A stretch of 61,658 bases of DNA, the filler included. It is 5 parts of 5 records of this genome, joined end to end, with 100 filler letters (N's around TTAATTAATTAA, not from the genome) between each part and the next. Parts side by side here need not be neighbours in the genome. Positions count along the whole stretch, not along the records: positions 28,359 to 48,526 come from SRR2962707_2553; 4 more parts are not named here. The stretch is one strand, 5' to 3'. Within the stretch, counting starts at the first letter, position 1. Each line of letters starts with the position of its first letter. Made by a program: the position numbers and the translations under genes. The notes under the pieces were generated by a model that searched no databases, had not been told where the DNA came from, and was given only the letters and a program-made list of their open reading frames with translations. Below are positions 29,984 through 47,613 of the stretch, piece by piece.

Positions 29984-30628
29984 TCACAAAGGGATCGTCA
30001 CCTCTTCCCGCTCCAACACCCGGTTTACCGCCGGGCGTTGGAGCATGCACCGGGTGTGTTCGATCCACGCCGTATGCTCGCTCATATCCAGCCCCACCAG
30101 ACTGCCCCACCTGAACAGCACCAACAGAAACGGATCCACCACACTGTACTGGTCACCCAGCGCCCAGGGCCCTGGTTGTGCCAAGCGCTCGGTCACATCC
30201 TGATTGGCCTGGGCCACCACCTTCAGACCCTGTTCCCTCAGAGCCGGGACGTCATCCGGATCGGCACTGAACCGATGCGGACGCCATATAAGACCGTAGC
30301 CGGTACCGTGCATCCAGCCAGCCAACCACGCCAGCCATTCCTGAACACGGCCGCGCTGCAGAGCGGTCGGCGGCAACAGGGCCGGCGTGTCATGGCTTTC
30401 CGCCAGAAAGGTCAGGATCGCGGGCAGTTCGGTAAGCACGCCCGCTTCGCCCGGAATAGCCAGAGCCGGTACCCGCCCCTTGGGGTTGATGGCCAGGTAA
30501 CCCGGCTTGGAAGTATCGCCGTCGTGAATCCGCAGGGGCATCAACCTGGTCGGCGCACCCAGTTCCTCCAATACGATATGCACTGCCATGGAGCAGGCAC
30601 CGGACGAATAATACAACTGATAGCTCAT
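29984..30628 (-). CDS. Glutathione S-transferase (beta-class-like)
   Basis: LYYSSGACS, INPKGRVPAL, LTELPAI, GDQYSVVD. Confidence 0.9.
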   Translation of the reverse strand: MSYQLYYSSGACSMAVHIVLEELGAPTRLMPLRIHDGDTSKPGYLAINPKGRVPALAIPGEAGVLTELPAILTFLAESHDTPALLPPTALQRGRVQEWLAWLAGWMHGTGYGLIWRPHRFSADPDDVPALREQGLKVVAQANQDVTERLAQPGPWALGDQYSVVDPFLLVLFRWGSLVGLDMSEHTAWIEHTRCMLQRPAVNRVLEREEVTIPL

Positions 30629-30719
30629 GGCTCGACTCCTTGAACGGGAGTGTCAGCCTAGAAGCCCGTCCTGAACCGGACAAACGATACTTTGTAGGGT
30701 CTGGGCATTAGTGATATTA

Positions 30720-31613
30720 ATGTCGCCCATGGATAGAAACTCGCTTCCGCCCCTGCAAACACTGGTGGCTTTCGAGGCCAGCGTCCGACTGCGCAGCTTC
30801 ACTCTGGCCGCACAGGAACTGTCACTGACCCAGGGCGCGGTCAGCCAGCACATCCGTTCCCTTGAGCAGCGTCTGGGACGGCGGTTGTTCGAACGGCAAC
30901 GTCAGGGCGCTGCCCCCACCAGGGAAGCCCAACATCTGGCCTTGCAGGTGCGCCAGGGCCTGGGTGTGCTGGAGCGGGCCTTCAAGACACCTCGTCGCAG
31001 GCACCGCGCCACCACGTTACGTTTGAGCACCTTACCGAGCATCGCGCAACGCTGGCTGTTACCGCGTCTGGCCGATTTCCATCAACGCTTTCCCGACATC
31101 CGCGTGGAGGTATCCACAGACGTCGATCTGGTCAAGCTGGGCGGTAACGCGAACAGCGACGTGGCACTGCGCTACGGCCCCGGAGGCTGGCCCGGCCTGC
31201 AATCGGAGGCATTGTCTTCGGAGTGGGTATACCCGGTGGCCAGTCCGGATTATCGCGATGGCAAACTGCCCCGCAGGCGGGCGGATCTGGGCCATTGCGT
31301 TTTGCTACGGCACGCGGCACAGCCCTGGGCTCTGTGGCTTCAGGCCGCGGGCCTGGCACTGGCCAACAGCGATCAAGGCCCGCTCTTTCTCAACCTGACC
31401 AGTTTGCTCGCAGCGGCGGAGAACGGCGAAGGTATCGCGCTGGCGCGGCATCATCTGGTGCGGGATGCGCTTGCGGCAGGCCGTCTGGTTCGATTGTGGA
31501 AGACCCAGGTAATCGACGTACATCGCTATTATCTGGTCTGGGCCCACCAGGCCGATAAGGACGACGCCATCGACACATTACGTCAATGGCTGAAAACCGC
31601 CTTTACTCTCTAA
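30720..31613 (+). CDS. LysR-family regulator (GcvA-like), divergent from the GST gene
   Basis: LPPLQTLVAFEA...SFTLAAQELSLTQGAVSQHI helix-turn-helix; DVALRYGPGGWPGL. Confidence 0.9.
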   Translation: MSPMDRNSLPPLQTLVAFEASVRLRSFTLAAQELSLTQGAVSQHIRSLEQRLGRRLFERQRQGAAPTREAQHLALQVRQGLGVLERAFKTPRRRHRATTLRLSTLPSIAQRWLLPRLADFHQRFPDIRVEVSTDVDLVKLGGNANSDVALRYGPGGWPGLQSEALSSEWVYPVASPDYRDGKLPRRRADLGHCVLLRHAAQPWALWLQAAGLALANSDQGPLFLNLTSLLAAAENGEGIALARHHLVRDALAAGRLVRLWKTQVIDVHRYYLVWAHQADKDDAIDTLRQWLKTAFTL

Positions 31614-32944
31614 ATCGATCGCGCCGGTTGGCGCGCTTTCAAACGCGGCCGGTTAAAGGCGATCGCCAGCAGAGCCGCCAACCCCAGCGCCCAGCAATAG
31701 TGAATGGCGCCGATCAATGACAACGGCGACAGTGATGCAATGGAGCAGGCCAGGAGGACTTGAGCGCCGTAAGGAATCAGCCCTTGCACCACGCAGGAAA
31801 AGATATCCATCAGGCTGGCCGAGCGCCTCGGATCGACGCCATATTCCGCGGCGATCTCCTTGGCCATTTCACCACACAGTACAATCGATACCGTGTTGTT
31901 GGCGACAAACAGATTGGCGGTGACCACCAGCAGCGCGATACCTATCTCACCGGCGCGCTGACTGGACAGCTTCAGCCAGCGGGTCAGCGAATGAATACGT
32001 TCGATCAGCCAGCGCGTGCCACCCTGATCATTCATCAGTTGCGATAACCCACCGATCAGCATCGATAACAACATGATCTCGAACATGGATTCGAAGCCCT
32101 GGTAGATCGCCCCATTGACGTCGACCAGACCGTATTCCGGACTCAGTATCACGCCAGTGAGCCCGGCGGTGACGATACCAATCACCAGCACCACCAATAC
32201 GTTCATCCCGGACAGCGCCAGAGCGAACACCAGCAGGTAAGGCATAACCCGCCAGTAGGACACGGATTCGGACGGCACCGTGTGTTCGCCGTCCCCCAGC
32301 AGCGCCAGCAACACCACCGTCGCCAACGCCGCCGGCAGCGCTATCCAGACGTTCACCCGGAATTTGTCCTTGAGCGAGACGCCCTGACTGCGAGTGGCGG
32401 CGATGGTGGTATCCGAGATCATCGACAGGTTATCGCCCAGCATGGCGCCGCCAACCACGGCCCCCAAGGACAAGGGCAACGACAACGAGGTGGCCTGGGC
32501 GAACCCCACCGCGATCGGCGCGGTGGCGGCGATGGTTCCCATGGAAGTGCCCATGGCGGTAGCGATAAAAGCGGAGATCAGGAACAGAGCCGGCAGTACC
32601 CAACTGGCCGGCATGATCTGCAACCCGAATTGAACGGTGGCATCAACGCTGCCGATACTCTTGCTGACGCTGGCGAAGGCGCCGGCCAACAGGAATACCA
32701 GGCACATGAGAACGATGTTGGGATGGCCGACGCCCACCAGCAAGCGTTCGACACTGTGATGGAAGGACTGCCGTGCCAGAAGGAATGACAACACAATGGC
32801 GACAACCGCCACCACCGGCGCCTTGATTTGATAGAACGCGAACTCCGCCCCCGCGGCACTGAAATAAAGCCCGCTACCGAGAAAGACGACAAGAAAGAAA
32901 AGTAGCGGGATCAGCGCCCATGCCCGGGCGGGAGTTTGCGTCAT
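31610..32944 (-). CDS. Na+/H+ antiporter NhaC-family (MetT-like) transporter
   Basis: ATAMGTSMGT, GDNLSMISDTTIAA, QGLIPYGAQ; highly hydrophobic. Confidence 0.85.
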   Translation of the reverse strand: MTQTPARAWALIPLLFFLVVFLGSGLYFSAAGAEFAFYQIKAPVVAVVAIVLSFLLARQSFHHSVERLLVGVGHPNIVLMCLVFLLAGAFASVSKSIGSVDATVQFGLQIMPASWVLPALFLISAFIATAMGTSMGTIAATAPIAVGFAQATSLSLPLSLGAVVGGAMLGDNLSMISDTTIAATRSQGVSLKDKFRVNVWIALPAALATVVLLALLGDGEHTVPSESVSYWRVMPYLLVFALALSGMNVLVVLVIGIVTAGLTGVILSPEYGLVDVNGAIYQGFESMFEIMLLSMLIGGLSQLMNDQGGTRWLIERIHSLTRWLKLSSQRAGEIGIALLVVTANLFVANNTVSIVLCGEMAKEIAAEYGVDPRRSASLMDIFSCVVQGLIPYGAQVLLACSIASLSPLSLIGAIHYCWALGLAALLAIAFNRPRLKARQPARSI

Positions 32945-33017
32945 ACTGGCCGGCCTGTCGGTCCAAGAAGTCTGACCGTCCAGTGTAGGGGGAAATGCGG
33001 GATGCCGAAACCGGCTC

Positions 33018-34199
33018 TTAGCCCAAGAACAGCGACGCCGGTGGTACGCAAAGTCCCCGCCCCAGCAGACCAGCCCGTCCGTCGCCGCCCACCATGGCGA
33101 TGGCCACCCTGGGCAGGTCCGTATCAGCCGTGACCCGATGACATGCGAGCCCGATCGGCAACTGCAAATCCTCGAATAAAGGATGCGCTCCGATCAGCCA
33201 GTCCGGTGACGCCTCCGCCGGATTTGGCCACCATGGCGCCAGTGCCTCGGCCACTCCGGAACAGCACCTCCACGCCTGGGCTCCCAGCCCGAAAGCATCG
33301 ATCACGCCGCTGTCGCCAACCATGGGGCTGACCGGCACGGCGGAGGCTGATATTCGGGGCCCCTCGGGCACCGGCGCGGCGCGGGTATGCCAGCGAGCCG
33401 GGTCTCCGGCCACTCGAAGCCCCACCCGGCGGCCATTGCCCGCCAACGCCAACACCAGGCTGGAGCCGGCTTCCCCGGCGGCGGCGGCCAGCATCAGATG
33501 ACAGGCGCCCATCCATAAAGTAAGAAAAAACAGCGGTGTATTGCCCAAACACTCAACAACCTCAACGGGCAACGTGGATGGCATCGCCGCGCATAAGGCC
33601 GTATTGGCATGGCTGGTTTGGGCATGCAAATCATCACCCGCTTCAAGCCCCAGACGGGCCAACGGCAGTAACGCGACCGGCCGGGTCGCCAGCCCCTTTC
33701 GCAGTGCCGGCGCCAGGATCCGGTCGCGCCAGTACAACCGCTCCAGGATCGCCGGATCCCGGCTGCCGAAGCGGATCTGAGGCCCGCTTCCGCTACTCAG
33801 CAAAGACCAGCAACGGTGCCCGGGATTCGCGGCGTCACTGATTTCCGCCAACGCCGTCGATGGCGAGATCACCGCGGCAAGCGGTGTGACCACCGAGAAC
33901 GACTGAGCCGGCAGCATTCTCACCTGGCCCGTGCTGATCAATCGTTCCGCCTCCTCCTCGTTTCGTGCCCACCCTTCATACAGGCAACACAGAACCGCCG
34001 AAGACAGGATCGGCGGGCTGGGGTCCCGCGGGTCCTCGAATGGCGGGCCGGCGTGCAACAAGGTCCAGTCCGGCAACGGCAACGCTCGCCGCGCTTCCGC
34101 CACACCAGACCATTGTGGCCGGACCTGCCGAACCTTCGTCAGCGCCGCCCGATTGGCGCTCTCCACGGCATCCATCCCGGCCCTTGGGTCGGATGCCAT
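33018..34199 (-). CDS. DUF1116 (YlbE/AllG/YahG-like) protein
   Basis: LLHAGPPF, LYEGWA, GDDLH, PLFFL, GNGRRVGL, GDSGVIDAFGLG, GRG near the C-terminus. Confidence 0.8.
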   Translation of the reverse strand: MASDPRAGMDAVESANRAALTKVRQVRPQWSGVAEARRALPLPDWTLLHAGPPFEDPRDPSPPILSSAVLCCLYEGWARNEEEAERLISTGQVRMLPAQSFSVVTPLAAVISPSTALAEISDAANPGHRCWSLLSSGSGPQIRFGSRDPAILERLYWRDRILAPALRKGLATRPVALLPLARLGLEAGDDLHAQTSHANTALCAAMPSTLPVEVVECLGNTPLFFLTLWMGACHLMLAAAAGEAGSSLVLALAGNGRRVGLRVAGDPARWHTRAAPVPEGPRISASAVPVSPMVGDSGVIDAFGLGAQAWRCCSGVAEALAPWWPNPAEASPDWLIGAHPLFEDLQLPIGLACHRVTADTDLPRVAIAMVGGDGRAGLLGRGLCVPPASLFLG

Positions 34200-35471
34200 T
34201 CAAGCCACCTCCGGTATCGGCAGAATCGACGCCGTGGCGTCAAAACGCCGCCCCTCACGCAGGCAGAACACGGGCTGCAACATACGTTCGGCAATCACCT
34301 CCGTGCCTTCATTATCCCGCATCAACCAACGGCCGCTTTCATCGGACAGCACACTGATATCCGCCACCCGGCCAACGCCAAGAGAGCCAATCTCATCACT
34401 CATACCCACCATGCGCGCCGCGTTCACTGTCACCATCGGAATCACCTGCTCCAGACTCAGGCCCAATGCGATCATGCTGGTCATCGCCGACACCAGGCTG
34501 AAGCGGGAGGTGCCCTTGAACATGTGCTCCTCATCCGGGTGCTCATGCTCCTCGGGAGTACCGGCCGGCGCCGGCACCGAAGTGTTATAGCCATGCATAT
34601 CGGAACCGAGCGTATGCGGCACGATACCCGCGCTCAGCACCTTCTCCGCCATCTTGAAACTGAAGTGGGAACCGTGCCCCACATCCACCTTGAGCCCGCG
34701 CTCGATGGCATCCCGTACCAGCGGGTGCACTTCCCCATTCAGCTCAACGAACCCGCCGGGGTGGCGGCTGAAAGGGTGCGCCAGCACATCACGCGGTTTG
34801 AGCAGATCCACCACCTGAGTAAAGATGGAGTCCGGGTCCACATCCATACCGCCCTCTTCAGGCTCCGGCCAAAGCTGGCCAAAATGAATGTAGACCGGCA
34901 GCCCTGTCTGCTCGCCGATGGCGGCGGCCTTTTGCATCACTTCCGTTCCCCAACGGGCAAAACCGCCCAGCTCAGCGTGAGCCTTGATGCCCTTCACCAC
35001 ATCCGCGTTGGCTTTGGCCGCCTTGACGGTGGCGGCAATGTCGGCGCAATCCGGCCGGTACAGTTGTGGATAAAAATGGCCTTCCAGCCCTCCCACCAAA
35101 TAAGCGGAAATAAAGGACAACACCCGGCTGTGGGAAGGCTCGATCACATGCTTGCGAAAGCCTGGCAGTGTCATGCAGCTGGCGCCCCCCTGATCGACCA
35201 GAGTGGTGACGCCGGAATGCACACCGCAAAGATCCGCATTCAATCCAAATCGCCCGGTAACATATTGATAGACATGGCTGTGGGTATCGATCAACCCGGG
35301 CAGTACCAGCCTGCCGCTACAGTCGACTCTTTCCACGTCCCCGGGTACATCGCCACCCTGCAACCGGCCAACAGCGGCGATACGTCCGTCGCGCACAAGA
35401 ACGTCACAAACCTCATCAATGCCGTTGGCGGGATCGATCACACGACCGCCGTGCAGTAGTAATGCTTGCAT
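34200..35471 (-). CDS. Binuclear metallo-amidohydrolase (dihydroorotase/deacetylase-like)
   Basis: PGLIDTHSH (HxH), DQGG, GIKAH (Lys), YIHFG, AHPF, DVGHGSHFSF, GSDMH (Asp), T.NAA, GSLGVGRVAD. Confidence 0.9.
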   Translation of the reverse strand: MQALLLHGGRVIDPANGIDEVCDVLVRDGRIAAVGRLQGGDVPGDVERVDCSGRLVLPGLIDTHSHVYQYVTGRFGLNADLCGVHSGVTTLVDQGGASCMTLPGFRKHVIEPSHSRVLSFISAYLVGGLEGHFYPQLYRPDCADIAATVKAAKANADVVKGIKAHAELGGFARWGTEVMQKAAAIGEQTGLPVYIHFGQLWPEPEEGGMDVDPDSIFTQVVDLLKPRDVLAHPFSRHPGGFVELNGEVHPLVRDAIERGLKVDVGHGSHFSFKMAEKVLSAGIVPHTLGSDMHGYNTSVPAPAGTPEEHEHPDEEHMFKGTSRFSLVSAMTSMIALGLSLEQVIPMVTVNAARMVGMSDEIGSLGVGRVADISVLSDESGRWLMRDNEGTEVIAERMLQPVFCLREGRRFDATASILPIPEVA

Positions 35472-35510
35472 GAAGACCTTCCAGGTAAATGTTACTGATG
35501 ACGATCAGGT

Positions 35511-35526
35511 AGCAATACACATGCCA
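35511..35526 (-). promoter_or_regulatory. Sigma-54 (-24/-12) promoter for amidohydrolase-DUF1116
   Basis: Minus strand TGGCAT-GTGTA-TTGCT, about 40 nt before the ATG. Confidence 0.8.
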
Positions 35527-35596
35527 ATCCATAGCCATTATTCTTTTTGTGAATCTCTAACTTGCTGTTATTCATGGGTTTACGTTCTTCAATATT

Positions 35597-35834
35597 TATG
35601 TGGTATACCATTTATATGGAAAAATGAAGGGCGCATTCAAGACGGCTTGATCTGCGCCGGCACCAATTCGAACCCTGGACTGTGCACCGACGGTGCGCGC
35701 CGCTTCAAGAAGCAGCGTTGCCATTCTCTTATCATCATATAGTTGGCATACCACATATTGCCGCATTGTGGTGCGCAAGCCCTTTTTCGGAACCGTCGCC
35801 GGTATTCATCGTGTCATCATTCATGTGGTATACC
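35597..35834. promoter_or_regulatory. Three copies of a putative operator ATGTGGTATRCC
   Basis: TATGTGGTATACCA (35597-35610), reverse TATGTGGTATGCCA (35744-35757) and ATGTGGTATACC (35823-35834). Confidence 0.7.
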
Positions 35835-35906
35835 CCTTTTATACATATAGAACATACCAAATAAAATCATAAGGTTACGCTCAAAACATAGGCTTTAAAT
35901 CGACGA

Positions 35907-35922
35907 TGGCACAGGACTTGCT
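35907..35922 (+). promoter_or_regulatory. Sigma-54 (-24/-12) promoter for the ABC transporter operon
   Basis: TGGCAC-AGGAC-TTGCT, a consensus match. Confidence 0.85.
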
Positions 35923-36002
35923 GCCGCCTTATCAGCATTCCAGCCATGGCTGGGGCCGGCATCATCATAGTGATAAATCCAATCGTACTTCAGGAGCGCT
36001 TT

Positions 36003-37151
36003 ATGTTGATCAAACCGCTGTATGCGATGCTGCTCGGGGGAGCATTACTGGCATCTCAGGCGCAGGCCGACGACACCATCAGGATCGGGGTTTCACAGCC
36101 GTTAACCGGATCCGTGGCCGCTTCCGGTACCTACGTCACCAACGGCGCACGTCTGGCCGTGGAGCACATCAACGGTAAAGGTGGTGTACTGGGCAAACCT
36201 CTGGAGCTGATTATCGAGGACAACAAGTCCAACCCGAGGGAGGCGGTCAACACCGCGGAGAAACTGATCCTGCGCGATAAAGTGCCGGTCATGATGGGGG
36301 CCTGGGGTTCCACCTTCACCCTGGCGACAATGCCGAAGCTGGAGGAGTACGGCGTTCCCATGGTGGTGGAGACCGCTTCTTCATCCAAGGTTACCACTTC
36401 CGGTAATCCCTGGGTTTTCCGTATCAGCCCGACTTCGATGATGGAAGCCCAGGCGTTCGCCAAACAGCTCTCCTCGTTCGCTCCTGCTATCAAGAAGGTG
36501 GATTTCCTGTCGGTGAACAACGACTGGGGACTGGGCGCGGCCGGCGCCTTCAAGGAGGTGCTGGAAAGCAAGGGGATTGAAGTAGGCCGTTCCGAAATCA
36601 TCGCTCCGGATGCCACTGATTTGTCCGCGCAATTGGCCGCCCTCAAAAACAGCGGCAGTGACACCATTATCGTTACATCAGGTGTGGAACAGCTAACTCT
36701 GGCGATTCGCCAGGCAGCCGAGCAAGGCATAAAACAACGGCTGGTCACCACTGGTGGGTCGTTTCCCGAACCCCTGGTGAAAAATCCGGGACCCAAGGGA
36801 TACGTCAGCACGCACCTGTTGTTTTTCTCACCCTGGACCGCGGATCAATCCATTCATCCGGATATCGCCAGGACTTACATGGATGCCTGGGAAGCAAAAG
36901 GCTATCCGTTCCCGGGTCTGACCGAAGGCTTTCGCGGCTATGACGCCATTCTTACCATCGCGGAAGCAATTCGCGTGGCCGGAAAAGCCGAACCGGAAGC
37001 GATCCGCGATGCGCTTTGGAAGGTCAAGCTGGCCGGTGTGAATGGCGACATCGCCTTTCACAAGGAAGGCCCCGAAGGCCGGGAAAGCGGCCAGAACACA
37101 CCCAATATCTACATCATCCAGTTGCAAGACGGCGAAGTTTCAGCACTGTAA
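36003..37151 (+). CDS. ABC substrate-binding protein, LivJ/HAAT family
   Basis: Signal peptide ending AQA, IRIGVSQPLTG, GGVLGKPLELIIEDNKSNP. ATG 36003 follows CAGGAG. Confidence 0.9.
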   Translation: MLIKPLYAMLLGGALLASQAQADDTIRIGVSQPLTGSVAASGTYVTNGARLAVEHINGKGGVLGKPLELIIEDNKSNPREAVNTAEKLILRDKVPVMMGAWGSTFTLATMPKLEEYGVPMVVETASSSKVTTSGNPWVFRISPTSMMEAQAFAKQLSSFAPAIKKVDFLSVNNDWGLGAAGAFKEVLESKGIEVGRSEIIAPDATDLSAQLAALKNSGSDTIIVTSGVEQLTLAIRQAAEQGIKQRLVTTGGSFPEPLVKNPGPKGYVSTHLLFFSPWTADQSIHPDIARTYMDAWEAKGYPFPGLTEGFRGYDAILTIAEAIRVAGKAEPEAIRDALWKVKLAGVNGDIAFHKEGPEGRESGQNTPNIYIIQLQDGEVSAL

Positions 37152-37207
37152 CGGCACCCTTATCCCCTTAGCGCAGTGCAAGGCGGATGTGAGTCAGGGA
37201 GATTATT

Positions 37208-38080
37208 TTGGACCAGTTCCTCCAGCACCTCGTCAACGGCACGGTGCTCGGTGCCACCTATGCCCTGCTTGGCATCGGGCTCACGCTTATCTTCGGCATC
37301 ATGAAAGTGGTCAACTTCGCCCATGGCGAGTTATACGCTTTCGGTGCCTATGTGGCCTACGCTCTGGTATCGCTGTTGCAGATGGATTATTTCGTGGCGC
37401 TTATCCTCGCGGCAGGCCTGGGTTTGCTATTGGGCGCGAGCATTGAGTTCCTGCTGTTGCGGCGTTGCCGTCTGGAGAACATCGACGAGGTCATGCTGAT
37501 CATGATTGGGGTCATGATCATTATGCAGAACGCCGAACTGCTGGCCTGGGGCGGGGTCGCCAAAGTAGTCCCCACCCCGTTCCCGCAGGAGTCCATTATT
37601 ATCGGCGGCATCTATCTGTCACCAACACGATTGTTTGTTCTTGGCGCGGCCATTGTGCTGCTGTTGGCCTTCTATCTGGTGATTGAACGTTCCCGGTTGG
37701 GGCTGGCGATGCGCGCCACCTTTCAGGACGAGGACGCGGCCCGTATCGTCGGCGTCAACGTGGGCCGGATTTACACGCTCACCTTCGGTCTGGGATCGTC
37801 ACTGGCGGCCATTACCGGGGCGCTGTTGGCACCGGTTTTCGTAGTCACACCGACAATGGGCGACCTGGCCAGCCTGAAGGCCTTCGCCATCGTTATTCTT
37901 GGCGGTCTCGGCAACATACGCGGAGCGGCGCTCGGCGGCTTCGCGCTGGCGCTGATTGAAGAGTTCGGGGCGGCTTACATTTCCACAGCCTATCGCGACG
38001 CGATCGGTTTCCTGGTGATTCTGGCCGTTATGATCGCCCGCCCACAGGGGTTGTTCGCGGCCAGGGAAAGGGTGGGTTGA
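37208..38080 (+). CDS. HAAT ABC permease (LivH-like)
   Basis: YALLGIGLTLIFGIMKVVNFAHGE, GLAMRA, ILGGLG. Confidence 0.9.
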   Translation: MDQFLQHLVNGTVLGATYALLGIGLTLIFGIMKVVNFAHGELYAFGAYVAYALVSLLQMDYFVALILAAGLGLLLGASIEFLLLRRCRLENIDEVMLIMIGVMIIMQNAELLAWGGVAKVVPTPFPQESIIIGGIYLSPTRLFVLGAAIVLLLAFYLVIERSRLGLAMRATFQDEDAARIVGVNVGRIYTLTFGLGSSLAAITGALLAPVFVVTPTMGDLASLKAFAIVILGGLGNIRGAALGGFALALIEEFGAAYISTAYRDAIGFLVILAVMIARPQGLFAARERVG

Positions 38081-39111
38081 TTATGCGGAGATTGTCTTTT
38101 CTTGTCATCGTGGCCGCACTGGCTTTGCTGCCGGTGCTGTGGCCCGATCCCTATTTGCTGTCGGTGGTAGCGGCCGCGGGAATCATGATCATCGCCGCCA
38201 TCAGTCTTAACCTGCTGCTCGGCTTCACTGGCCAGCTCAGTCTCGGACACGCCGCTTTTTTTGGCATTGGCGCCTATACCAGTGCGCTGCTCTCCCTGGG
38301 CTTCGACGTCGATCTGGGCTTCTCATCGCCTCTGGTAGTAGCACCCAAACCGGTATGGGTGGCTTTCGCCGGTGGCATCGTCATGGCATCACTGTTTGGA
38401 TGGCTGTTGGGCAAGGTTGCTTTTCGCGTACGCGGTGCCTACTTCGTGATCGTCACCATCAGTTTTGCTCAGGTCATGCGCATGGTGGCGCTCAATTGGG
38501 TCGATCTGACCGAAGGCCCCATGGCTCTGGTTTCCATTCCACCCCTGAGCCTCTGGGTTCCCGGCGAAGGCGTTGTCCGCCTGGTCAGCAAAGCCTCGAC
38601 GTACTGGTTGGTACTGGCCGCCGGTGTGCTGGCCTACGTGATCGTGGCCAATCTGGTACGCAGCCGCATCGGCCGTGCCGCCATGGCGTTACGGGGAAAC
38701 GAGGTACTGGCAAAGTCCATCGGTATCCCGGTGACCCGGTGCCTGATCGTCTTTTCGGTCCTCTCCGCCGGTATCGCCGGTGCCGCTGGCGGTCTCTACG
38801 CCCATACCGTGCGGATCATTGACCCGGACGTTTTTCTGTTCATCTACACCATTACCATGGTGATCATGGTGATCGCCGGCGGCAAAGGCACCCTGGCTGG
38901 TCCGGTAGTAGGCGGTCTTATTTTCGGGCTCTTACCGGAAATGCTCAGAGGGGTGGTGGCACCGGAAGTGCAATGGATGATTTACGGCGCTTTGATGATC
39001 CTGATTCTTCTGTTCATGCCCAAAGGCATCGTTCCCGCCTTTGGTGGCTTATTAAAGCGCGGCAGGATTTCCGTGCGCCGCCCCTCCGCTACTCAAGGAG
39101 CCAGCTCATGA
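38077..39111 (+). CDS. HAAT ABC permease (LivM-like)
   Basis: SLNLLLGFTGQLSLGHAAFFGIGAY, RGAYF, GGKGTLAGP. Confidence 0.9.
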   Translation: MIMRRLSFLVIVAALALLPVLWPDPYLLSVVAAAGIMIIAAISLNLLLGFTGQLSLGHAAFFGIGAYTSALLSLGFDVDLGFSSPLVVAPKPVWVAFAGGIVMASLFGWLLGKVAFRVRGAYFVIVTISFAQVMRMVALNWVDLTEGPMALVSIPPLSLWVPGEGVVRLVSKASTYWLVLAAGVLAYVIVANLVRSRIGRAAMALRGNEVLAKSIGIPVTRCLIVFSVLSAGIAGAAGGLYAHTVRIIDPDVFLFIYTITMVIMVIAGGKGTLAGPVVGGLIFGLLPEMLRGVVAPEVQWMIYGALMILILLFMPKGIVPAFGGLLKRGRISVRRPSATQGASS

Positions 39112-39911
39112 CTGTATCCGCCGCGGAGCAGCCGGAAACGTTACTGTCCTTGTCCGGCATCAGCCTGCGCATCGCCGGCCTGCAGATTCTCAGCGACGTG
39201 GACCTCCGGGTTGAACCCGGCCGGATCGTCAGTCTGATCGGCCCCAATGGCGCCGGCAAAACCACGGCGTTCAATATTATCTCCGGCTATATGCGCCCCA
39301 GTGCCGGTTCCGTGCATTTTCTCGGACTGGACATTACCGGCAAACAACCCCATGAGATAGCCGAACTGGGTTTGGTCCGCAGTTTCCAGAGGACCAATAT
39401 CTTTGGTAACTGCACCGTGTTCGAAAACCTGCTTACCGCTTTTCACATGCAAGGTCGTAGCGGACTCTTCGGTGCCATATTCAGGCTGCCCGCCTTCCAG
39501 CGAGAAGAGCAGGCGCTGGAGGCACGTACACGGGAGATGCTTGGTTTTCTGGAACTGGAGCATCGCGCCGATGATCTTGCCGCCAATCTGTCCTATGGCG
39601 AACAGCGTCTGCTCGGCGTCGGTATTGCCCTGGCGGCCCGGCCCAAGCTGTTATTGCTGGATGAACCCGCCGCGGGTTTGAACCCATCGGAAACCGAGGA
39701 CTTCAAGCAGATGGTGCGGCGTGTAGCCGACAGCGGCATCACTATTCTTCTGGTGGAGCATGACATGCACATGGTGATGTCGATCTCTGATTACATCGTG
39801 GTGTTGAACCAGGGGCATCGCATTGCCGACGGCAGCCCCGCCGACATTCAAAGCGACCCGGAGGTAATTCGGGCGTATCTGGGATCAGGATTGCAACGTG
39901 CTAAAGCTTGA
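39108..39911 (+). CDS. HAAT ABC ATPase (LivG-like)
   Basis: GPNGAGKTT, LSYGEQR, LLDEPAAG, VEHDM, AYLG; ATGA overlap at 39108. Confidence 0.9.
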   Translation: MTVSAAEQPETLLSLSGISLRIAGLQILSDVDLRVEPGRIVSLIGPNGAGKTTAFNIISGYMRPSAGSVHFLGLDITGKQPHEIAELGLVRSFQRTNIFGNCTVFENLLTAFHMQGRSGLFGAIFRLPAFQREEQALEARTREMLGFLELEHRADDLAANLSYGEQRLLGVGIALAARPKLLLLDEPAAGLNPSETEDFKQMVRRVADSGITILLVEHDMHMVMSISDYIVVLNQGHRIADGSPADIQSDPEVIRAYLGSGLQRAKA

Positions 39912-40602
39912 TGATATTACCGTTCACTATGGCGCCACCGTGGCGGTGGACAAAGTATCGCTGGAAGTGAATGAAGGTGAGTTCGTCACCCTCATCGGCT
40001 CCAATGGCGCCGGCAAGTCCAGCACGCTCAGGGCCATCAGCGGCCTGGAACCCGTGGTCTCCGGCACTATCACCTTTGAAGGAAAGCCGATTACCAACGC
40101 CAGGCCACAGAGCATTATCGAGCACGGTATTGCCCATTGCCCGGAAGGGCGTCGTGTATTCTCTCAATTGAACGTGCGCGAGAATCTGGAGATGGGGGCT
40201 TACTGCCGCGGCGATCATGCCGGTATCCGTGATGACCTTGAGTCCATGCTGGACCGTTTCCCACGGTTGCGTGAACGTATCGAACAACCCGCGGGCACCC
40301 TTTCCGGCGGTGAGCAGCAAATGCTGGCCATCGCACGGGCGCTGATGTCCCGTCCGCGACTGGTTATGTTCGACGAACCCTCCTTGGGCCTGGCGCCCAA
40401 CTTCGTCGAGCAGGTTTTTGAGTTGACCGCCGAAATCCGCGCTGCCGGCACCACCGTACTAATGGTGGAACAGAACGCCTATGCCGCGCTGGAATTGTGC
40501 GATCGGTCCTATCTCCTGGAGACCGGACGGGTGGTATTGCAGGGCACCGCCAGGGAAATGCGTGACAATCCGGATATCCGCAAAGCTTATCTGGGCGGAT
40601 AA
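39898..40602 (+). CDS. HAAT ABC ATPase (LivF-like)
   Basis: GSNGAGKS, PEGRRVF, LSGGEQQML, DEPSLGLAP, VEQN. Confidence 0.9.
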   Translation: MLKLDDITVHYGATVAVDKVSLEVNEGEFVTLIGSNGAGKSSTLRAISGLEPVVSGTITFEGKPITNARPQSIIEHGIAHCPEGRRVFSQLNVRENLEMGAYCRGDHAGIRDDLESMLDRFPRLRERIEQPAGTLSGGEQQMLAIARALMSRPRLVMFDEPSLGLAPNFVEQVFELTAEIRAAGTTVLMVEQNAYAALELCDRSYLLETGRVVLQGTAREMRDNPDIRKAYLGG

Positions 40603-40670
40603 GGCCCCCATGGTCAGCCCGCGCCACCAGCGGCTAGACTGAACCACGTTATTCACCTGGAGACTACGGT

Positions 40671-41147
40671 ATGCGACAGGTTCTTTTGATTGTCGACGTA
40701 CAACCTTCGTTTTCTCCGCCGGCCTGGCTTCTTCGGGACATTGACCGTTTGCTCGGCCATATGCCGACCGTGGCGACCGTGGAGTGTCATGACGAAGCGA
40801 TCACACCCTTTCAGGCGCAATTGGGTTGGCGGCCGCCGGAACAGGAACGAAGTCTGATCGCGGCCGACCGGCACTTCGTCAAACATGGCTACCGTCCTAC
40901 CAACGAGGTGCTGCACCATCTTATCCAACTAGCCCCGGAAAGGGTTTTGGTGTGCGGCATCCAGACCGAAACCTGCGTACTCGCCGCCGGCTTCGCGCTG
41001 TTTGATCTGGGGCTGCGCCCGACTCTGATTACGGACCTGACCCTGGGCTCATCACTGGATCCCTCCGGCGCGCTCGGTGCTCGGCTTTGGCGACATCACT
41101 TCAGGCACACCACGACGTTGACGGAGCTGCTCGCGACAGGTACCTGA
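40671..41147 (+). CDS. Cysteine hydrolase (isochorismatase/nicotinamidase family)
   Basis: LIVDVQ (Asp), FVKHGY (Lys), CGIQTETCV (Cys) catalytic triad. Confidence 0.85.
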   Translation: MRQVLLIVDVQPSFSPPAWLLRDIDRLLGHMPTVATVECHDEAITPFQAQLGWRPPEQERSLIAADRHFVKHGYRPTNEVLHHLIQLAPERVLVCGIQTETCVLAAGFALFDLGLRPTLITDLTLGSSLDPSGALGARLWRHHFRHTTTLTELLATGT

Positions 41148-41178
41148 AAGACGATCAGACGGAGAATCCAGGGAAGAA

Positions 41179-42159
41179 TCAGATATCCAGCACCAAACTG
41201 GCCGACTGGCTTGAAGAGCAGCAGATGATCATGGTGCCACGGCGATCATGCTCTTCCGCCGAACATACCGTGTCACGATGATCCGGGCGCCCTTCCAATA
41301 CCCTCACCTCGCAGGCCCCGCAAAGCCCCTGTTCACAGGAATACATGACGTCGGCGCCGGCATCTCGCAGGGCGTCCAGGATAGTTTGCCCGGGAGCCAC
41401 CCGCACCTGCGCGCCGGAGCGCGCCAAAGTCACCTCGAACGCATCATTCGAAGCCGCCGCTAGTGGGGCGGCCTGAAAGCGCTCCATATGGATGCGGCGC
41501 CGCGCATTCAGCTCCTCTCCCAGCCGCTCCAGGTGATCGAGCATCCCCTTAGGGCCGCAGCAATAGATCTCGGTTTGCCTGGTCACGCCCCTGACCACAG
41601 CGGCAAATTGCCCGGCGCTATCCTCCGGAGAAGCGGCGTAATGGACCGTAACATCGCTGCGACCGCGCAGCGTTTCCAGAAACAATCCGTGTTTTTTTGA
41701 GCGGCACCAGTAATGCAGCCGTACCGGCCGACCGCTTGCGCGGACATGCTCATACATAGAGTAGATTGGGGTGATACCGATCCCCCCCGCCAACAGCAAT
41801 ACCGGTGAGGTACCCGGCGTTATCTCGAACTGGTTGCGAGGCGGGCTCAGATCAAATACCTGTCCTACCCGGGCACTGTCGTGCAGCCAGCGAGAGCCGC
41901 CCCTGCCGTTCTCTTCCCGCTTTACCGCGATAACATAGCGCCGCGGCGAACACAGCGGTGTTATCAGCGAGTATTGACGTAGCACCCCACCCGGCAAACC
42001 AATGTCCACATGCGCGCCGGCGGAGACCGGCGGCAAAGCCGCTGGTGTAATCGCCTCGAACTCATAGAAGATAATTTCTTCCGCACCATAGCGAATGGTG
42101 TCCAAACGAACCGGCAAGGTCCCGGTATCCTGAAAAACACCGGTATCAGACCGTGCCAT
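41179..42159 (-). CDS. PDR/VanB-family FMN/NAD(P)H/[2Fe-2S] reductase
   Basis: AGAHVD, RQYSL, GRGGS, AGGIGITP, YCCGP, SCEQGLCGAC, ICCS. Confidence 0.92.
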   Translation of the reverse strand: MARSDTGVFQDTGTLPVRLDTIRYGAEEIIFYEFEAITPAALPPVSAGAHVDIGLPGGVLRQYSLITPLCSPRRYVIAVKREENGRGGSRWLHDSARVGQVFDLSPPRNQFEITPGTSPVLLLAGGIGITPIYSMYEHVRASGRPVRLHYWCRSKKHGLFLETLRGRSDVTVHYAASPEDSAGQFAAVVRGVTRQTEIYCCGPKGMLDHLERLGEELNARRRIHMERFQAAPLAAASNDAFEVTLARSGAQVRVAPGQTILDALRDAGADVMYSCEQGLCGACEVRVLEGRPDHRDTVCSAEEHDRRGTMIICCSSSQSASLVLDI

Positions 42160-43186
42160 ACTGAACTCCCATCTTCTGCAGCCAGGAACGGTACTTCATA
42201 CCGAGCAGATCGGTACGGTGGTGAAGCTCTTGACGCAGATCAGTGGGAATCCGTTCTGGGCGTTGCGTATCGACAATGTCACTGTCCTGGGCATAGACCA
42301 GATCCTGACGTTGACGCACTTCATCATCCGTCGGCATGGGGTTGAAGTTCATGGCGCAGCAAATCCGAACGATGCTTTCCGTCTCGCTCACTTGTTGGGC
42401 GGTCAGATAAGTGCAGAAGCGATCATTGGGATTACCTTCATGGGCGCGGTCCGGGTCCGTAATCAGGACACGTTTTTTAAAGTAGGCCACCAACGGCCGC
42501 AAGCATTTGTAGGCATAGAATGCGGTTACCGGCACATTACGCGGATCCCCATAAGGCTGGGTCACTTGCACTTCGGAAGAGGCCAGGCCTCCGTTCTCCT
42601 CCCAGACGTCATAGGCTCCGATCGGATCCGGATCATCCATCAGGCCGTTCACGCCCGCGTGCACGAAAGGGAAATGGGTGGGATCAATGAAATTCTCCAC
42701 CGCCCGATAGCCGGACTTGAAGCGGTAGGGGCCGCACACCACCTTCTTGTAGCTGTCATCGTTCCACTCGGGGAAATCCGGTATATCGTGTTCCGGTTCG
42801 CCCAGGCTGGTCCAGATGAAGCCATAGGCTTCCTTGACGTGATGGCTGATGGCCTTGGCCTTTTTCATCGGTGTCTCCCCCGGGGAAGCAGGGATTAGCC
42901 GGCACTGCGCCGTGCCATCGTAGTTCCAGCCATGGTAAGGACACACGACCCGGTCACTGGCGATAAACCCTTTGGAGAGCCGCGCTCCCCGGTGGATGCA
43001 CAGATCTTCCCACACATGAGCCTGGCCACTTGAATCACGCCAGATCACCAGATCGCGCTCGAACAGGGTGGAGGGTATCAAATTACCTTCCGTTACTTCG
43101 TCGGAAGCAGCCACCACGTGCCAGTCGTTCAACAACGCGGGCTCCAGGGTAAATTCCTGCTGATTCAGCTGTTCTCTGCAGTTCAT
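42146..43186 (-). CDS. Rieske non-heme iron oxygenase, VanA/HpxD/NdmA-like
   Basis: CIHRG...CPYHGW Rieske motif, ENFIDPTHFPFVH mononuclear Fe site, C-terminal QDSDIVDTQRPERIP...YRSWL. Confidence 0.9.
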   Translation of the reverse strand: MNCREQLNQQEFTLEPALLNDWHVVAASDEVTEGNLIPSTLFERDLVIWRDSSGQAHVWEDLCIHRGARLSKGFIASDRVVCPYHGWNYDGTAQCRLIPASPGETPMKKAKAISHHVKEAYGFIWTSLGEPEHDIPDFPEWNDDSYKKVVCGPYRFKSGYRAVENFIDPTHFPFVHAGVNGLMDDPDPIGAYDVWEENGGLASSEVQVTQPYGDPRNVPVTAFYAYKCLRPLVAYFKKRVLITDPDRAHEGNPNDRFCTYLTAQQVSETESIVRICCAMNFNPMPTDDEVRQRQDLVYAQDSDIVDTQRPERIPTDLRQELHHRTDLLGMKYRSWLQKMGVQYGTV

Positions 43187-43230
43187 TGGTATCTTCCTCG
43201 ATTACAGCGGCCGGATTAATACCTTTGAAA

Positions 43231-43246
43231 AGCAAGTTGTATGCCA
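43231..43246 (-). promoter_or_regulatory. Sigma-54 (-24/-12) promoter for the Rieske oxygenase-reductase pair
   Basis: Minus strand TGGCAT-ACAAC-TTGCT, about 45 nt before the ATG. Confidence 0.8.
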
Positions 43247-43399
43247 CCCTTTTTCAAGCCCAGCCTGGCCGTTACAGACCTTTCCCGCATTGACTTAAGT
43301 GGCTGATTTTCGTGGTTATATTAGATGGATTCCGAGTTTATATAGCGGCCATGAAAATGCGGCTTTGAAGGTAAAGCGTGCCACTGGGCAAGGCATCTT

Positions 43400-43412
43400 T
43401 ATGTGGTATGCC
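43400..43412. promoter_or_regulatory. Fourth copy of the putative operator
   Basis: TATGTGGTATGCC, identical to the reverse copy at 35745-35757. Confidence 0.7.
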
Positions 43413-43551
43413 TCTTAGTTGAGCATGAAAGGACGACGATTATCACGCTCTCTCGCCCGTTCTCCCGTCATGTCGCAACCCAGGTTGACAAGCCGAAGGG
43501 CGCTGGTCTTTACTTCTTCTTATTCTCACCAGATATTTCTCCACATTTTTT

Positions 43552-44082
43552 ATGGGCAATTCCTCTAAGACATCCAGGAAAGCGGCCGCCGCTCAACTGG
43601 CCAATGCGGTCGAACGATCCGCCCTGCTTGGCCGTCCGGGTTTTCTTATTCGTCGTTTGCACCAGATCCACTGCGGACTGTTTCTGGATGAAACCCGGGA
43701 GCACAACATCACGCCGGTTCAGTACAGTCTGATGACCACGTTAAGCACCCACGGAGAGATGGACCAGAACAGCCTGGCTCATGAGATCGGCCTGGAACGC
43801 ACCAGCGTGGCCGAGGTGATCCCCCGCTTGGAAGCCCGGGGTTTGCTTAAACGCCGGCAGAGCGACGAGGACCGGCGCTTCAAACTGGTCAAGCTGAGCC
43901 GCAAAGGGGTTTATTTACTGAAAAAGATGGAGCCCGCCGTGCAACGGGCTCACGATCGCACCATCGAAGCCATCCCGAAAGATCAGCGTGATGTCTTCAT
44001 GTTGCAGTTGATCAGACTGGTGGAAGCCAATAACGAAAACGGCAGCGCGCCATTCCGGTTGAGCAAGGGAGGCGACGGATAA
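43552..44082 (+). CDS. MarR-family regulator
   Basis: RPGFLIRRLHQI, ITPVQY, DQNSLAHEIGLERTSV, DEDRR wing motif. Confidence 0.9.
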   Translation: MGNSSKTSRKAAAAQLANAVERSALLGRPGFLIRRLHQIHCGLFLDETREHNITPVQYSLMTTLSTHGEMDQNSLAHEIGLERTSVAEVIPRLEARGLLKRRQSDEDRRFKLVKLSRKGVYLLKKMEPAVQRAHDRTIEAIPKDQRDVFMLQLIRLVEANNENGSAPFRLSKGGDG

Positions 44083-44117
44083 CCGCGCCTTCGATACGCA
44101 GTCACTATCACGATGTG

Positions 44118-44200
44118 CTATGAAGCCACTGCAGGAGCTTGCCTGCAAGCGAATGCCTGAAACGAGGTCCGATTCGCTTGCAGACAAGCTCCTGCAGTGG
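44118..44200. repeat. REP doublet (REPIN-like) downstream of glmS
   Basis: CCACTGCAGGAGCTTGCCTGCAAGCGAAT ... ATTCGCTTGCAGACAAGCTCCTGCAGTGG inverted arms, same family as 7212-7294. Confidence 0.8.
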
Positions 44201-44268
44201 TCTTTTAGCTACCTCCGAATCCCGCTTCCAAAGCCGGCAATGATGGAGCGCGTACGGTGCCGGCGTTA

Positions 44269-46098: not shown

Positions 46099-46117
46099 AA
46101 CGGTCTTACTCCTTGCT

Positions 46118-47485
46118 TCACTGATCCTGTTTTTTTACAGGACGCTGCCAATCCATAATGTTGCGCTGTTTACCACGCGCCACTGCCAGAGCGTTGTCTT
46201 CCACATCCCGGGTAATGGTGCTGCCCGCGCCGATGGTTGCATTTTCGCCAATGGTGACCGGCGCGACCAGTGAAGAATTGGAACCGATGAAAGCGCCGTC
46301 CTTCATGATCGTCTGGTATTTGTTAACGCCGTCATAATTACAGGTGATGGTGCCCGCGCCCACATTCACGCCCTTGCCGATCCGGCTGTCGCCGATGTAG
46401 GTCAGGTGATTTACCTTCGACCCCTCTCCGATGGTTGCTTTCTTGGTCTCCACGAAATTGCCGACCTTCACCTTGGCCGCCAGTTCCGTGCCCGGTCGCA
46501 GGCGGGCAAACGGCCCAACCTGACAATGCTCGCCTACGCGGGCACCATCAATGACAGAGTTGGCTTCAACCACGGTGTGAGCACCGAGATGGGCATCCCG
46601 AATCAGACAATTGGGGCCGATGCGCACGCCGGACTCGATGGTGACCTTGCCTTCCAGGACCACGTTGACATCCATCATCACGTCACCGGCCACCTGGACA
46701 TCGCCACGCACATCAAGACGGGCCGGATCCATCAGCGTGACACCGGCGCGCATCAGCGCTTCGGCCTGGTTCAGTTGATAAACCCGTTCCAGCCGTGCCA
46801 GTTGCACGCGGTCATTGACGCCGTCCACTTCCCACGGAAAAGCGGGCTGGGCGGTTTCCACCGTCATTCCTTTTTCCACCGCCATGGCGATCAGATCGGT
46901 CAGGTAATACTCGCCCTGAGCGTTGTTGTTGGACAGTGCCGGCAGACTTTCCGACAGAAACCCACGGGTACAGGCGAGGATACCGGTGTTGATCTCCGGG
47001 ATGCGTTTTTCGTCTTCGCTGGCGTCTTTCTGCTCAACAATGCGCTGTACCTTACCGTCCTCTCCACGAACGATACGCCCGTAACCGGAAGGGTCGTCCA
47101 TGGTCAGGGTCATCAACGCCAGGGTCCGTTCGTTTACCCGGGCAACGAACTCCCGCAGGGTTTCCGGCCGGATCAGCGGAACATCACCGTAGAGGACCAG
47201 TACCACGTCCTCTTCCAGATAAGGCAGCGCCTGGGCCACCGCGTGGCCGGTGCCGAGCTGTTCAGCTTGTTCCGCCCAGCGCAGGTTGGTCCCCTGCACC
47301 GCTTCGCGCACCTTCTCGCCACCGTGGCCATACACCACCACGGTATTCAACGGGTCGAGCGCCGCCGCCGCGTCGACAACATGCTGCACCATCGGCCGCC
47401 CGGCGATGCCGTGAAGCACTTTGGGGAGGGCGGACTTCATGCGGGTTCCTTTACCCGCGGCAAGGATCACTACCGCTAGGTTCAT
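46118..47485 (-). CDS. glmU: Bifunctional GlcNAc-1-P uridyltransferase/acetyltransferase
   Basis: [24 protein letters not shown], hexapeptide repeats, GNFVETK, CNYDG. Confidence 0.97.
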
Positions 47486-47549
47486 GTCTGTTCCGGGCTC
47501 CATAACGGGGTCGAAAGGGTGTTTATCCTATCCCTCGACCATTGCAAAT

Positions 47550-47581
47550 AAAAAAAGGGCGGCACATGGCCACCCTTTTTT
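47550..47581 (-). terminator. Probable terminator after the atp operon
   Basis: AAAAAAAGGGCGGC-ACATG-GCCACCCTTTTT hairpin with A/T tracts on both sides. Confidence 0.7.
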
Positions 47582-47613
47582 ACATCTCTTTGAAAATGGT
47601 GCCACCGCAAGTG

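Follow-up and report, generated by a model that had tools for sequence, protein, structure and literature searches.

What do the genes that lie between a LysR gene and glmS in this 61,658-bp stretch of DNA (the window, whose numbering is used for all positions) do, and do they act together? From a listing of open reading frames (ORFs) combined with Pfam and NCBIfam family scans, we found three transcription units in this interval, with a MarR gene alongside: a Rieske oxygenase with a PDR reductase (the Rieske unit), a Liv-type ATP-binding cassette (ABC) importer with an isochorismatase-like cysteine hydrolase (the importer unit), and a cog3964 amidohydrolase with a DUF1116 protein and possibly an NhaC-family transporter (the amidohydrolase unit). 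The scans confirmed, gene by gene, the content and positions given in a preliminary description of this DNA, which had proposed a sigma-54-driven pathway for N-heterocycle catabolism. The cluster is a real, jointly controlled set of genes. On balance, we think it probable that it is a nitrogen-catabolic regulon, and that it represents the Rieske variant of a widespread, uncharacterised module for import, hydroxylation, hydrolytic ring opening and ammonia release. The outline of the preliminary description was largely right; it is refined below in the oxygenase reaction (most likely hydroxylation, not demethylation), in the core of the module (the amidohydrolase-MarR pair) and in the position beside glmS, which is incidental.

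The case for joint control rests on the promoters. The pattern TGGCAYNNNNNTTGC (TGGCAY-N5-TTGC) has exactly three matches in the window, each of which heads, and points into, one unit (0.41 expected; 0 of 100 shuffles reached three), and all three show the GG at -24, the GC at -12, the spacing and the orientation of a sigma-54 promoter. The box ATGTGGTATRCC occurs in four exact copies, all in two divergent intergenic regions, and a single one-mismatch copy stands outside the cluster intergenic regions, at 54842; the total of five matches with at most one mismatch compares with an expected 0.34 and was reached in 0 of 100 shuffles. In addition, the promoter of the Rieske unit overlaps a one-mismatch copy of the box GTGGCATACCAC. 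Promoters and boxes are both kept in nine related genome loci (L001-L009): every module operon there has TGG(C/T)AY-N5-TTGC, a form with a relaxed -24 element, against a background of 33 matches in 952,456 bp of other loci, and the Rieske-unit promoter occupies the same place in L001-L005. In these nine loci each promoter is preceded, at 70-170 bp, by a box with the core GGYATRCC, whose best form is the palindrome ATGTGGCATACCACAT of L004; in L003, L004, L007, L008 and L009 the box also makes up the -24 to -14 part of the promoter. Together, these motif counts and their conservation support the proposal, already made in the preliminary description from the shared promoter and operator motifs, that the three units form one sigma-54 regulon. 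Membership of the NhaC gene is uncertain; the 73-bp gap between it and the DUF1116 gene contains no sigma-54 match.

Which regulators might act on these elements? Family scans revealed no sigma-54 activator gene in the window; since each unit has a sigma-54 promoter, an unlinked AAA+ activator would be needed. The nearest genome, G001, whose Rieske protein is 100% identical to that of the window, encodes seven sigma-54 activators, including a true NtrC (750 bits against a cut-off of 620), and NtrC is the leading candidate for the activator of the cluster promoters. One possible NtrC site, a perfect inverted repeat (GCACC-GAC-GGTGC, 35680-35702) midway between the divergent sigma-54 promoters, was rejected, as its spacing is wrong relative to the NtrC consensus. 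No regulator other than MarR is conserved with the cluster; MarR co-occurs with the amidohydrolase in 12 of 22 genome loci of the ortholog clade, and is probably the repressor of the regulon. The simplest reading of the palindromic GTGGYATRCCAC boxes is therefore that they are operators for MarR, which would gate induction. The best solved relatives of the MarR protein are PcaV (1.5e-15) and CouR, and a HucR-type chain is absent among its 20 matches at 1e-6 or better.

We then compared the gene neighbourhoods of the best 80 of 566 Rieske relatives. The combination of Rieske oxygenase, amidohydrolase and DUF1116 asked for by the preliminary description was found in other genomes, and MarR and PDR accompany it: all five genes occur together in the nine gammaproteobacterial loci L001-L009, the full set being present in Alcanivorax, Phytopseudomonas (two genomes), Motiliproteus, Amphritea, Pseudomonas sp., Marinobacterium and Marinobacter, with partial sets in Acetobacter, Acidocella and Nocardia. 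Of the 22 loci with a Rieske protein of at least 63% identity, 18 had PDR (adjoining the Rieske gene), 13 the amidohydrolase, 12 MarR and 9 DUF1116; the 58 with at most 60% identity, where PDR was not counted, contained none of the other three genes. The three-unit set of the preliminary description is thus present in the window, but the Liv importer, cysteine hydrolase and NhaC transporter are lineage-specific additions and not part of the conserved core across the 80 genome loci; the latter two occur in L001 only. The Rieske orthologue is found in 4 of 70 genomes of the family of G001, all of one genus. Two congeners that lack the cluster carry unrelated DNA downstream of glmS, so the adjacency to glmS, which the preliminary description had singled out, is incidental.

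A second comparison, with the 80 metagenomic loci that best match the amidohydrolase (64-100% identity; many of the contigs are short), revealed what usually stands in the place of the oxygenase. A large subunit of the xanthine dehydrogenase family directly follows the amidohydrolase gene in 46 of the 80 loci, at 61-100% identity among loci, and this molybdenum (Mo) hydroxylase subunit is never found together with a Rieske gene (0 of 80). MarR is present in 40 loci, DUF1116 in 18, a Liv-type substrate-binding protein (SBP) related to that of the window in 19, and a Rieske gene in five, four of them with PDR. In seven of eight long loci, Pfam matched the amidohydrolase together with MoCoBD and FAD_binding_5 subunits, with Fer2_2 matched in six and CoxG in five; these genes are followed by DUF1116 (with an AtzH-like protein and an amidase) or by a Liv importer, and MarR is divergent. 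By this comparison, the Mo enzyme is the usual hydroxylase of a widespread module and the Rieske pair in the window is the variant, and the core of the module is the amidohydrolase-MarR pair, not the oxygenase. Its parts, as judged from all loci, are MarR; the cog3964 amidohydrolase; a ring hydroxylase (usually a three-subunit Mo enzyme with CoxG, here Rieske and PDR); DUF1116, with or without AtzH/HpxZ-like, amidase and HpxW-like proteins; and an ABC importer. Mo enzymes of the xanthine dehydrogenase family hydroxylate ring carbons and do not demethylate. The same kind of hydroxylase swap, between HpxDE and xanthine dehydrogenase, is reported in PMC7373994.

The Rieske protein is an alpha subunit only (Pfam Rieske, 81 bits; VanA_C, 54 bits). 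Its cluster ligands C63, H65, C82 and H85, and the candidate mononuclear-iron residues H171, H176, D295, D301 and D306, are invariant in 10 sequences. The family is highly conserved: the best 120 database matches are all at least 68% identical and come from several phyla. The reductase, an NAD-binding domain followed by a C-terminal plant-type 2Fe-2S domain, is encoded by a gene that overlaps the Rieske gene by 14 nt. Of the solved structures, SxtT (2e-51, 178.5 bits) and GxtA (4e-50) are closest, with close alignment in the Rieske domain and weak alignment in the C-terminal catalytic half; NdmA (2.4e-28, 102.6 bits), NdmB (2.7e-20, 76.1 bits) and DdmC (4e-16) follow. The likeness to NdmA/B that had been noted earlier holds for the C-terminal motif, which NdmA has in common; the same motif is found in SxtT/GxtA, and these are the closest solved relatives, so that the oxygenase is a distant relative of the NdmA/B N-demethylases and not a member of that group. 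Nor does it fall with simple aromatic O-demethylases, the outcome that would have spoken against the preliminary description: its match to DdmC is far below those to NdmA and SxtT. Because the Rieske pair stands where a Mo hydroxylase usually stands, we propose that it is most likely a hydroxylase of a ring carbon next to nitrogen, and not an N- or O-demethylase; the N-demethylation option of the preliminary description is unlikely on the same ground.

Sister Rieske proteins were found in several other settings. A sister Rieske-PDR pair, 59% identical, adjoins a PuuD-type urate oxidase (L024:8881-12261); another lies in a nicotinate-like set with an FAD monooxygenase, an Amdase/maleate-isomerase-like protein and an alpha/beta hydrolase (L036:9905-15921); and a third is carried on a Pantoea plasmid with an isochorismatase-like (IHL) cysteine hydrolase, an AtzH-like protein and an FAD monooxygenase. 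The plasmid collection yielded only sister-clade oxygenases, at no more than 54% identity. We count it in favour of the nitrogen-catabolic reading that these sister clades (54-59% identity) sit in other N-heterocycle clusters.

The hydrolases of the cluster were assigned as follows. The amidohydrolase is dihydroorotase-like and matches NF006689 ('amidohydrolase/deacetylase family metallohydrolase'; 410.6 bits against a cut-off of 371); its best solved match is 2ogj (1.2e-38), followed by 8wzy, 8je0 and 2ics. H64, H66, K163, H196, H232 and D291 are invariant in 21 sequences, and by analogy we take them to be the ligands of a binuclear metal centre (HxH, carboxylated Lys, two His and Asp). We propose that this protein is the ring-opening enzyme. 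The DUF1116 protein belongs, as had been suggested, to the Pfam AllG family (PF06545; 190.2 bits against a cut-off of 27), and AllG genes that lie beside AllF-type or peptidase M20 genes score 294-329 bits, against 190 for that of the window. No AllF-type Ligase_CoA gene adjoins the DUF1116 gene of the window, and AllH (PF11392) had no match in G001, which is 100% complete, with the E. coli control positive. Because G001 is without AllH, the protein would not be part of an AllFGH oxamate carbamoyltransferase, and by its sequence it is a separate subfamily, paired with the amidohydrolase. DUF1116 is rare, being present in 7 of 401 sampled Gammaproteobacteria, and all three sampled genomes that have a Rieske relative are among those seven; its neighbours in the sampled genomes include AllF/AllK, M20 peptidases, another Rieske protein, a TauD enzyme and a molybdopterin enzyme. 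We also observed DUF1116 fused to CoxG (P0259), to a MarR domain (P0302), to an NmrA-like domain (P0371) and to an AllF-type CoA-ligase (P0357, P0381 and P0389); the CoxG fusion mirrors the adjacency of CoxG and DUF1116 in Mo-hydroxylase clusters.

The partners of DUF1116 in relatives offer a lead to the intermediate. The DUF1116 proteins of L002, L005, L006 and L007 carry a fused HpxZ/AtzH-like domain (NF033625, 166 bits against a cut-off of 135; AtzH 6bjt at 1.8e-33), and an amidase of NF006169 lies alongside (471 bits against 391); in the Acetobacter loci its place is taken by an AtzE-family amidase (588 bits against 461). A GGT-like protein is also encoded in L006 and L007. Among solved structures it is most similar to 5hft (4.8e-104; E. 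coli GGT reaches 9e-32), which we take to be the Klebsiella oxamate amidohydrolase HpxW. G001 has a corresponding GGT-like/amidase/HpxZ triad unlinked to the cluster, together with a GntR gene, at 55%, 45% and 45% identity to L007. The HpxZ/AtzH fusions, the amidase and the HpxW-like hydrolase of relatives therefore point to an acyl-urea intermediate, which would be of the oxalurate or ureidomalonate type. Elsewhere in G001, a second nitrogen-catabolic island (L098, G001:C3:56000-73000) contains a 2-oxoglutarate/DIOX_N oxygenase, a GGT-like protein, an NF006169 amidase, HpxZ (204 bits), GntR, an NMT1-type binding protein, a creatininase-family protein, an FAD_binding_4 protein and ABC genes; a Rieske paralogue, 39% identical, lies about 6 kb beyond it.

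The transporters of the clusters differ by taxon: a polar-amino-acid ABC system is found in most, the Liv type in Alcanivorax and a Comamonas metagenome-assembled genome, an MFS protein in Nocardia and an NCS1 protein in Acidocella. Both types of binding protein, Liv and polar-amino-acid (the latter in L008), resemble amino-acid binders. Another 11 metagenomic loci (L123, L162, L164, L165, L167, L175, L176, L185, L186, L188 and L190; SBP only in L176) have SBP/LivH homologues of 52-80% identity beside the amidohydrolase, and in L190 and L123 the Liv genes of the window, at 73-80% identity, stand beside the Mo enzyme. The cysteine hydrolase is divergent: it has 158 amino acids, matches PF00857 in its C-terminal half only (37.8 bits against a cut-off of 27) and reaches no NCBIfam model, and its triad of D9, K71 and C102 is present, at positions assigned by eye from the translation. 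We propose that it is an (acyl-)urea amide hydrolase.

From these assignments we propose the following scheme. A small, polar, probably carboxylate-bearing N-heterocycle would be taken up by the Liv-type importer. The Rieske/PDR pair, with NAD(P)H and O2, would hydroxylate a ring carbon beside nitrogen to give a lactam or cyclic ureide, which the binuclear-metal amidohydrolase would open into an oxalurate- or ureidomalonate-type acyl-urea. Nitrogen would then be released by DUF1116 and the cysteine hydrolase, perhaps aided by the GGT-like/amidase/HpxZ triad, which in G001 lies apart from the cluster. The clues to the substrate are the amino-acid-binder-like transporters, the aromatic-acid-sensor-like MarR and the dihydroorotase-like amidohydrolase; our best guess is a pyrimidine or a ureide of the hydantoin/imidazolidine type. 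The chemistry would suit either of two routes, one for pyrimidines (from uracil through barbiturate to ureidomalonate) or one for hydantoin-type ureides (through parabanate to oxalurate), and parabanic acid is reported in the older literature to induce oxamate transcarbamylase. For the purine, pterin or methylxanthine-like substrate suggested in the preliminary description, nothing singles these compounds out, and Rfam, which gave no match at gathering score in the window and 11 loci, found no xanthine riboswitch there. Its statement that no characterised pathway has this gene set stood up in the literature searched, which covered journals outside subscription: no description was found.

Several observations weigh against this reading. 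All steps of the mechanism are inferred from sequence. We know of no solved cog3964 enzyme with a known native substrate. One enzyme of this kind hydrolyses acetyl-mandelate esters, and the amidohydrolase may therefore be a deacylase and not a ring opener; esterase-like BD-FAE genes adjoin it in Alphaproteobacteria and Actinobacteria. The DUF1116 protein is without AllF or AllH partners at the locus, and its predicted fold (pLDDT 96.1) offers no functional lead, as Foldseek and a wide VIA-align search returned only 3clq (TM 0.91; Z 54.4), with no other match above Z 2.2. The link to an acyl-urea rests on relatives and on the unlinked triad of G001, because AtzH/HpxZ-like, amidase and HpxW-like genes are lacking in the cluster of the window. 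As for control, we recognised no canonical NtrC site in the DNA inspected, judging by eye against the consensus; the boxes could be sites for an activator rather than for MarR, because they lie at distances like those of upstream activating sequences (-70 to -170); and the nearest solved relatives of MarR sense aromatic acids.

We weighed this reading against four others. If the Rieske/PDR pair were an HpxDE-like hypoxanthine or xanthine hydroxylase, with the remaining genes serving downstream ureides, the cluster would be a purine branch of the Klebsiella Hpx type. Such a branch could explain the PuuD-type urate oxidase beside the 59%-identical sister pair in L024 and the HpxZ- and HpxW-like genes of L006 and L007, and hcaE/PDR-type genes resembling hpxDE accompany xanthine riboswitches, according to PMC7373994. 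We consider it unlikely: urate oxidase, HIU hydrolase, allantoinase and allantoicase were not found in the cluster or its orthologues, the Rfam search of the window and 11 loci was empty, the transporter relatives bind amino acids, and the best 80 of the 566 Rieske relatives include no Klebsiella record. More doubtful still is an Ndm-like N-demethylase that acts on an N-methylated heterocycle or amino-acid derivative, with the hydrolases acting on the demethylated product. NdmA and NdmB are among the nearest solved relatives and have the C-terminal motif in common; against this, SxtT and GxtA, which are C-hydroxylases, are much closer, a Mo hydroxylase holds the oxygenase's place in 46 of 80 homologous loci and never occurs beside it, and no formaldehyde-handling genes lie nearby in the window.

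The VanA_C domain of the Rieske protein and the PcaV- and CouR-like MarR might instead indicate a VanAB-type aromatic-acid pathway, in which O-demethylation or aromatic hydroxylation is controlled by a PcaV-like regulator. This seems very improbable to us, given the poor match to DdmC, conserved partners that are all C-N hydrolases or ureide enzymes, the lack of a ring-cleavage dioxygenase in the cluster, and sigma-54 control, which suits a nitrogen-source pathway. Finally, the genes could be unrelated, gathered in a variable region downstream of glmS, with motifs that are general sigma-54 promoters only. The wholly different DNA at this place in two congeners, and the lineage-specific Liv system, cysteine hydrolase and NhaC, are as such a view would predict. 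We give it hardly any credence, as the core genes, promoters and boxes stay together in metagenomes and in nine genomes where the chromosomal site is not the same.

How does the proposed regulon compare with known systems? Like the Klebsiella Hpx purine pathway, it has a two-component Rieske/PDR hydroxylase in place of a Mo hydroxylase, and HpxZ-like and 5hft-like proteins occur in orthologous clusters and unlinked in G001; unlike it, the cluster is without urate- or allantoin-handling genes, has the cog3964 amidohydrolase and DUF1116 at its core, and is under sigma-54 and MarR control. The absence of a riboswitch in the Rfam search likewise sets it apart from purine oxidation genes controlled by the xanthine (NMT1 motif) riboswitch. 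The AtzD-AtzEG-AtzH pathway for cyanuric acid is similar in its AtzH-like and AtzE-family/amidase-signature enzymes for carboxylated ureas, which are found in the clusters of relatives and not in that of the window, and differs in that ring opening here is proposed to be by a metal amidohydrolase, not AtzD/TrzD, after a proposed oxygenase step. The oxidative pyrimidine pathway comprises uracil dehydrogenase, barbiturase and ureidomalonase, and the known barbiturase is in the AtzD/TrzD family. Its logic is alike (a Mo-type ring hydroxylase, a ring-opening amidohydrolase, an amidase-signature enzyme on an acyl-urea), whereas the amidohydrolase of the window is of the cog3964 type. The E. coli Rut pyrimidine pathway is encoded by a sigma-54/NtrC-type nitrogen-scavenging operon with an isochorismatase-like ureide hydrolase, RutB. 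The cluster resembles it as a sigma-54 operon of the nitrogen-scavenging type that includes an isochorismatase-like hydrolase, but lacks homologues of RutA, RutC, RutD, RutE, RutF and RutG. SxtT/GxtA and NdmA/NdmB, the nearest solved relatives of the oxygenase, are also alpha-only and act on N-heterocycles; the former are biosynthetic and the latter demethylases, whereas the cluster would be catabolic and the reaction proposed for it is another. The E. coli oxamate carbamoyltransferase AllFGH (PMC11326118) has in AllG a member of the family to which the DUF1116 protein belongs, and differs from the window in its AllF and AllH partners.

The features of the locus are listed in Table 1. The SBP start was corrected from 35946 to M20 (36003), which probably is the true start, as it gives a signal peptide; the LivG start was corrected to 39108, with AAGGAG upstream. 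Contigs from RNA libraries (four runs, one study) span all 30 of the 30 bins of 30500-47600, though levels, starts and strands cannot be read from contigs and DNA may have been carried over. Each of the four runs has a contig that starts on the LysR side, crosses NhaC and stops in the 3' part of the DUF1116 gene (33352-33557); coming from a single study, these contigs do not bear on the transcription unit of NhaC. Scans for sigma-70 promoters and terminators gave nothing above shuffled controls.

Table 1. Genes and predicted regulatory elements between the LysR gene and glmS.
Feature	Position	Strand	Basis or remark
LysR/GcvA-like gene	30711-31613	+	Pfam/NCBIfam
NhaC-family transporter	31610-32944	-	Pfam and NCBIfam; downstream of DUF1116 gene
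DUF1116/AllG-like protein	33018-34199	-	Pfam AllG; gene start abuts amidohydrolase stop codon
cog3964-type amidohydrolase (predicted binuclear-metal)	34200-35471	-	NF006689
Predicted sigma-54 promoter TGGCATGTGTATTGC, amidohydrolase-DUF1116 unit	35512-35526	-	Motif search
ATGTGGTATRCC box	35598-35609	+	Between divergent sigma-54 promoters
ATGTGGTATRCC box	35745-35756	-	Between divergent sigma-54 promoters
ATGTGGTATRCC box	35823-35834	+	Between divergent sigma-54 promoters
Predicted sigma-54 promoter TGGCACAGGACTTGC, importer unit	35907-35921	+	Motif search
Liv-type (HAAT) ABC importer, five genes	36003-40602	+	SBP ORF from 35946
SBP	36003-37151	+	
LivH	37208-38080	+	
LivM	38077-39111	+	
LivG	39108-39911	+	
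LivF	39898-40602	+	
Isochorismatase-like cysteine hydrolase	40671-41147	+	Pfam Isochorismatase; last gene of importer unit
PDR/VanB-type reductase	41179-42159	-	Pfam Fer2 and NAD_binding_1
Rieske/VanA_C oxygenase	42146-43186	-	Pfam Rieske and VanA_C
Predicted sigma-54 -24/-12 promoter TGGCATACAACTTGC, Rieske-PDR unit	43232-43246	-	Motif search
ATGTGGTATGCC box	43401-43412	+	About 155 bp upstream of Rieske promoter, about 140 bp upstream of MarR start
MarR-family regulator	43552-44082	+	Pfam MarR
glmS	44269-46098	-	glmU also present

Other parts of the window and of the genomes compared also drew our attention. Positions 11565-24210 have a lower G+C content (0.51-0.57) and contain numerous long ORFs that no Pfam family matches at 1e-8; this stretch, with the different DNA after glmS in congeners, suggests a large variable or acquired region. 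On the minus strand, 48890-57952 encodes an FAD (DAO) oxidoreductase, an SDR protein, a 747-aa molybdopterin oxidoreductase, a DHDPS-family enzyme, a TRAP transporter and a LysR protein. In an unrelated gammaproteobacterium (G434:C2:500640-506285, L107/L112), an amidohydrolase (56%), MarR, DUF1116 and an NMT1-type binding protein lie in this order; no Rieske gene at 1e-60 or better, no boxes and no sigma-54 pattern were found at that locus. G001 also carries a locus typical of cyanuric acid or biuret use (L099, G001:C4:178000-195000), with an AtzD/TrzD ring-opening amidohydrolase, a Bmp-type ABC system, a CN-hydrolase, an AtzH-like protein and two isochorismatase-like proteins, one of which passes the BiuH cut-off (424 bits against 370).

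What would the cluster mean for its hosts? The Rieske cluster and its much commoner Mo version make cog3964 and DUF1116 members of a single pathway, conserved and under its own regulation, that occurs in bacteria from the sea, from soil and from plants, and sigma-54 promoters with an overlapping MarR-type operator would be an unusual arrangement. The pair in the window would also show plainly that a Rieske oxygenase can take over from a Mo hydroxylase, an exchange that matters where molybdenum or its cofactor is limiting. Tentatively, and with considerable doubt, we suggest that the module breaks down a pyrimidine or a small cyclic ureide by an undescribed oxidative route, in which Mo and Rieske/O2 hydroxylases are interchangeable, the cog3964 enzyme opens the ring and the stand-alone DUF1116 protein processes an acyl-urea without AllF or AllH. 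If true, this route would give native functions to two long-orphan families, of which DUF1116 has so far been understood only as a subunit of the E. coli oxamate carbamoyltransferase. Once its substrate is identified, the cluster would add to the ways in which oil-degrading marine bacteria, for which nitrogen is typically limiting, scavenge this element from organic compounds.

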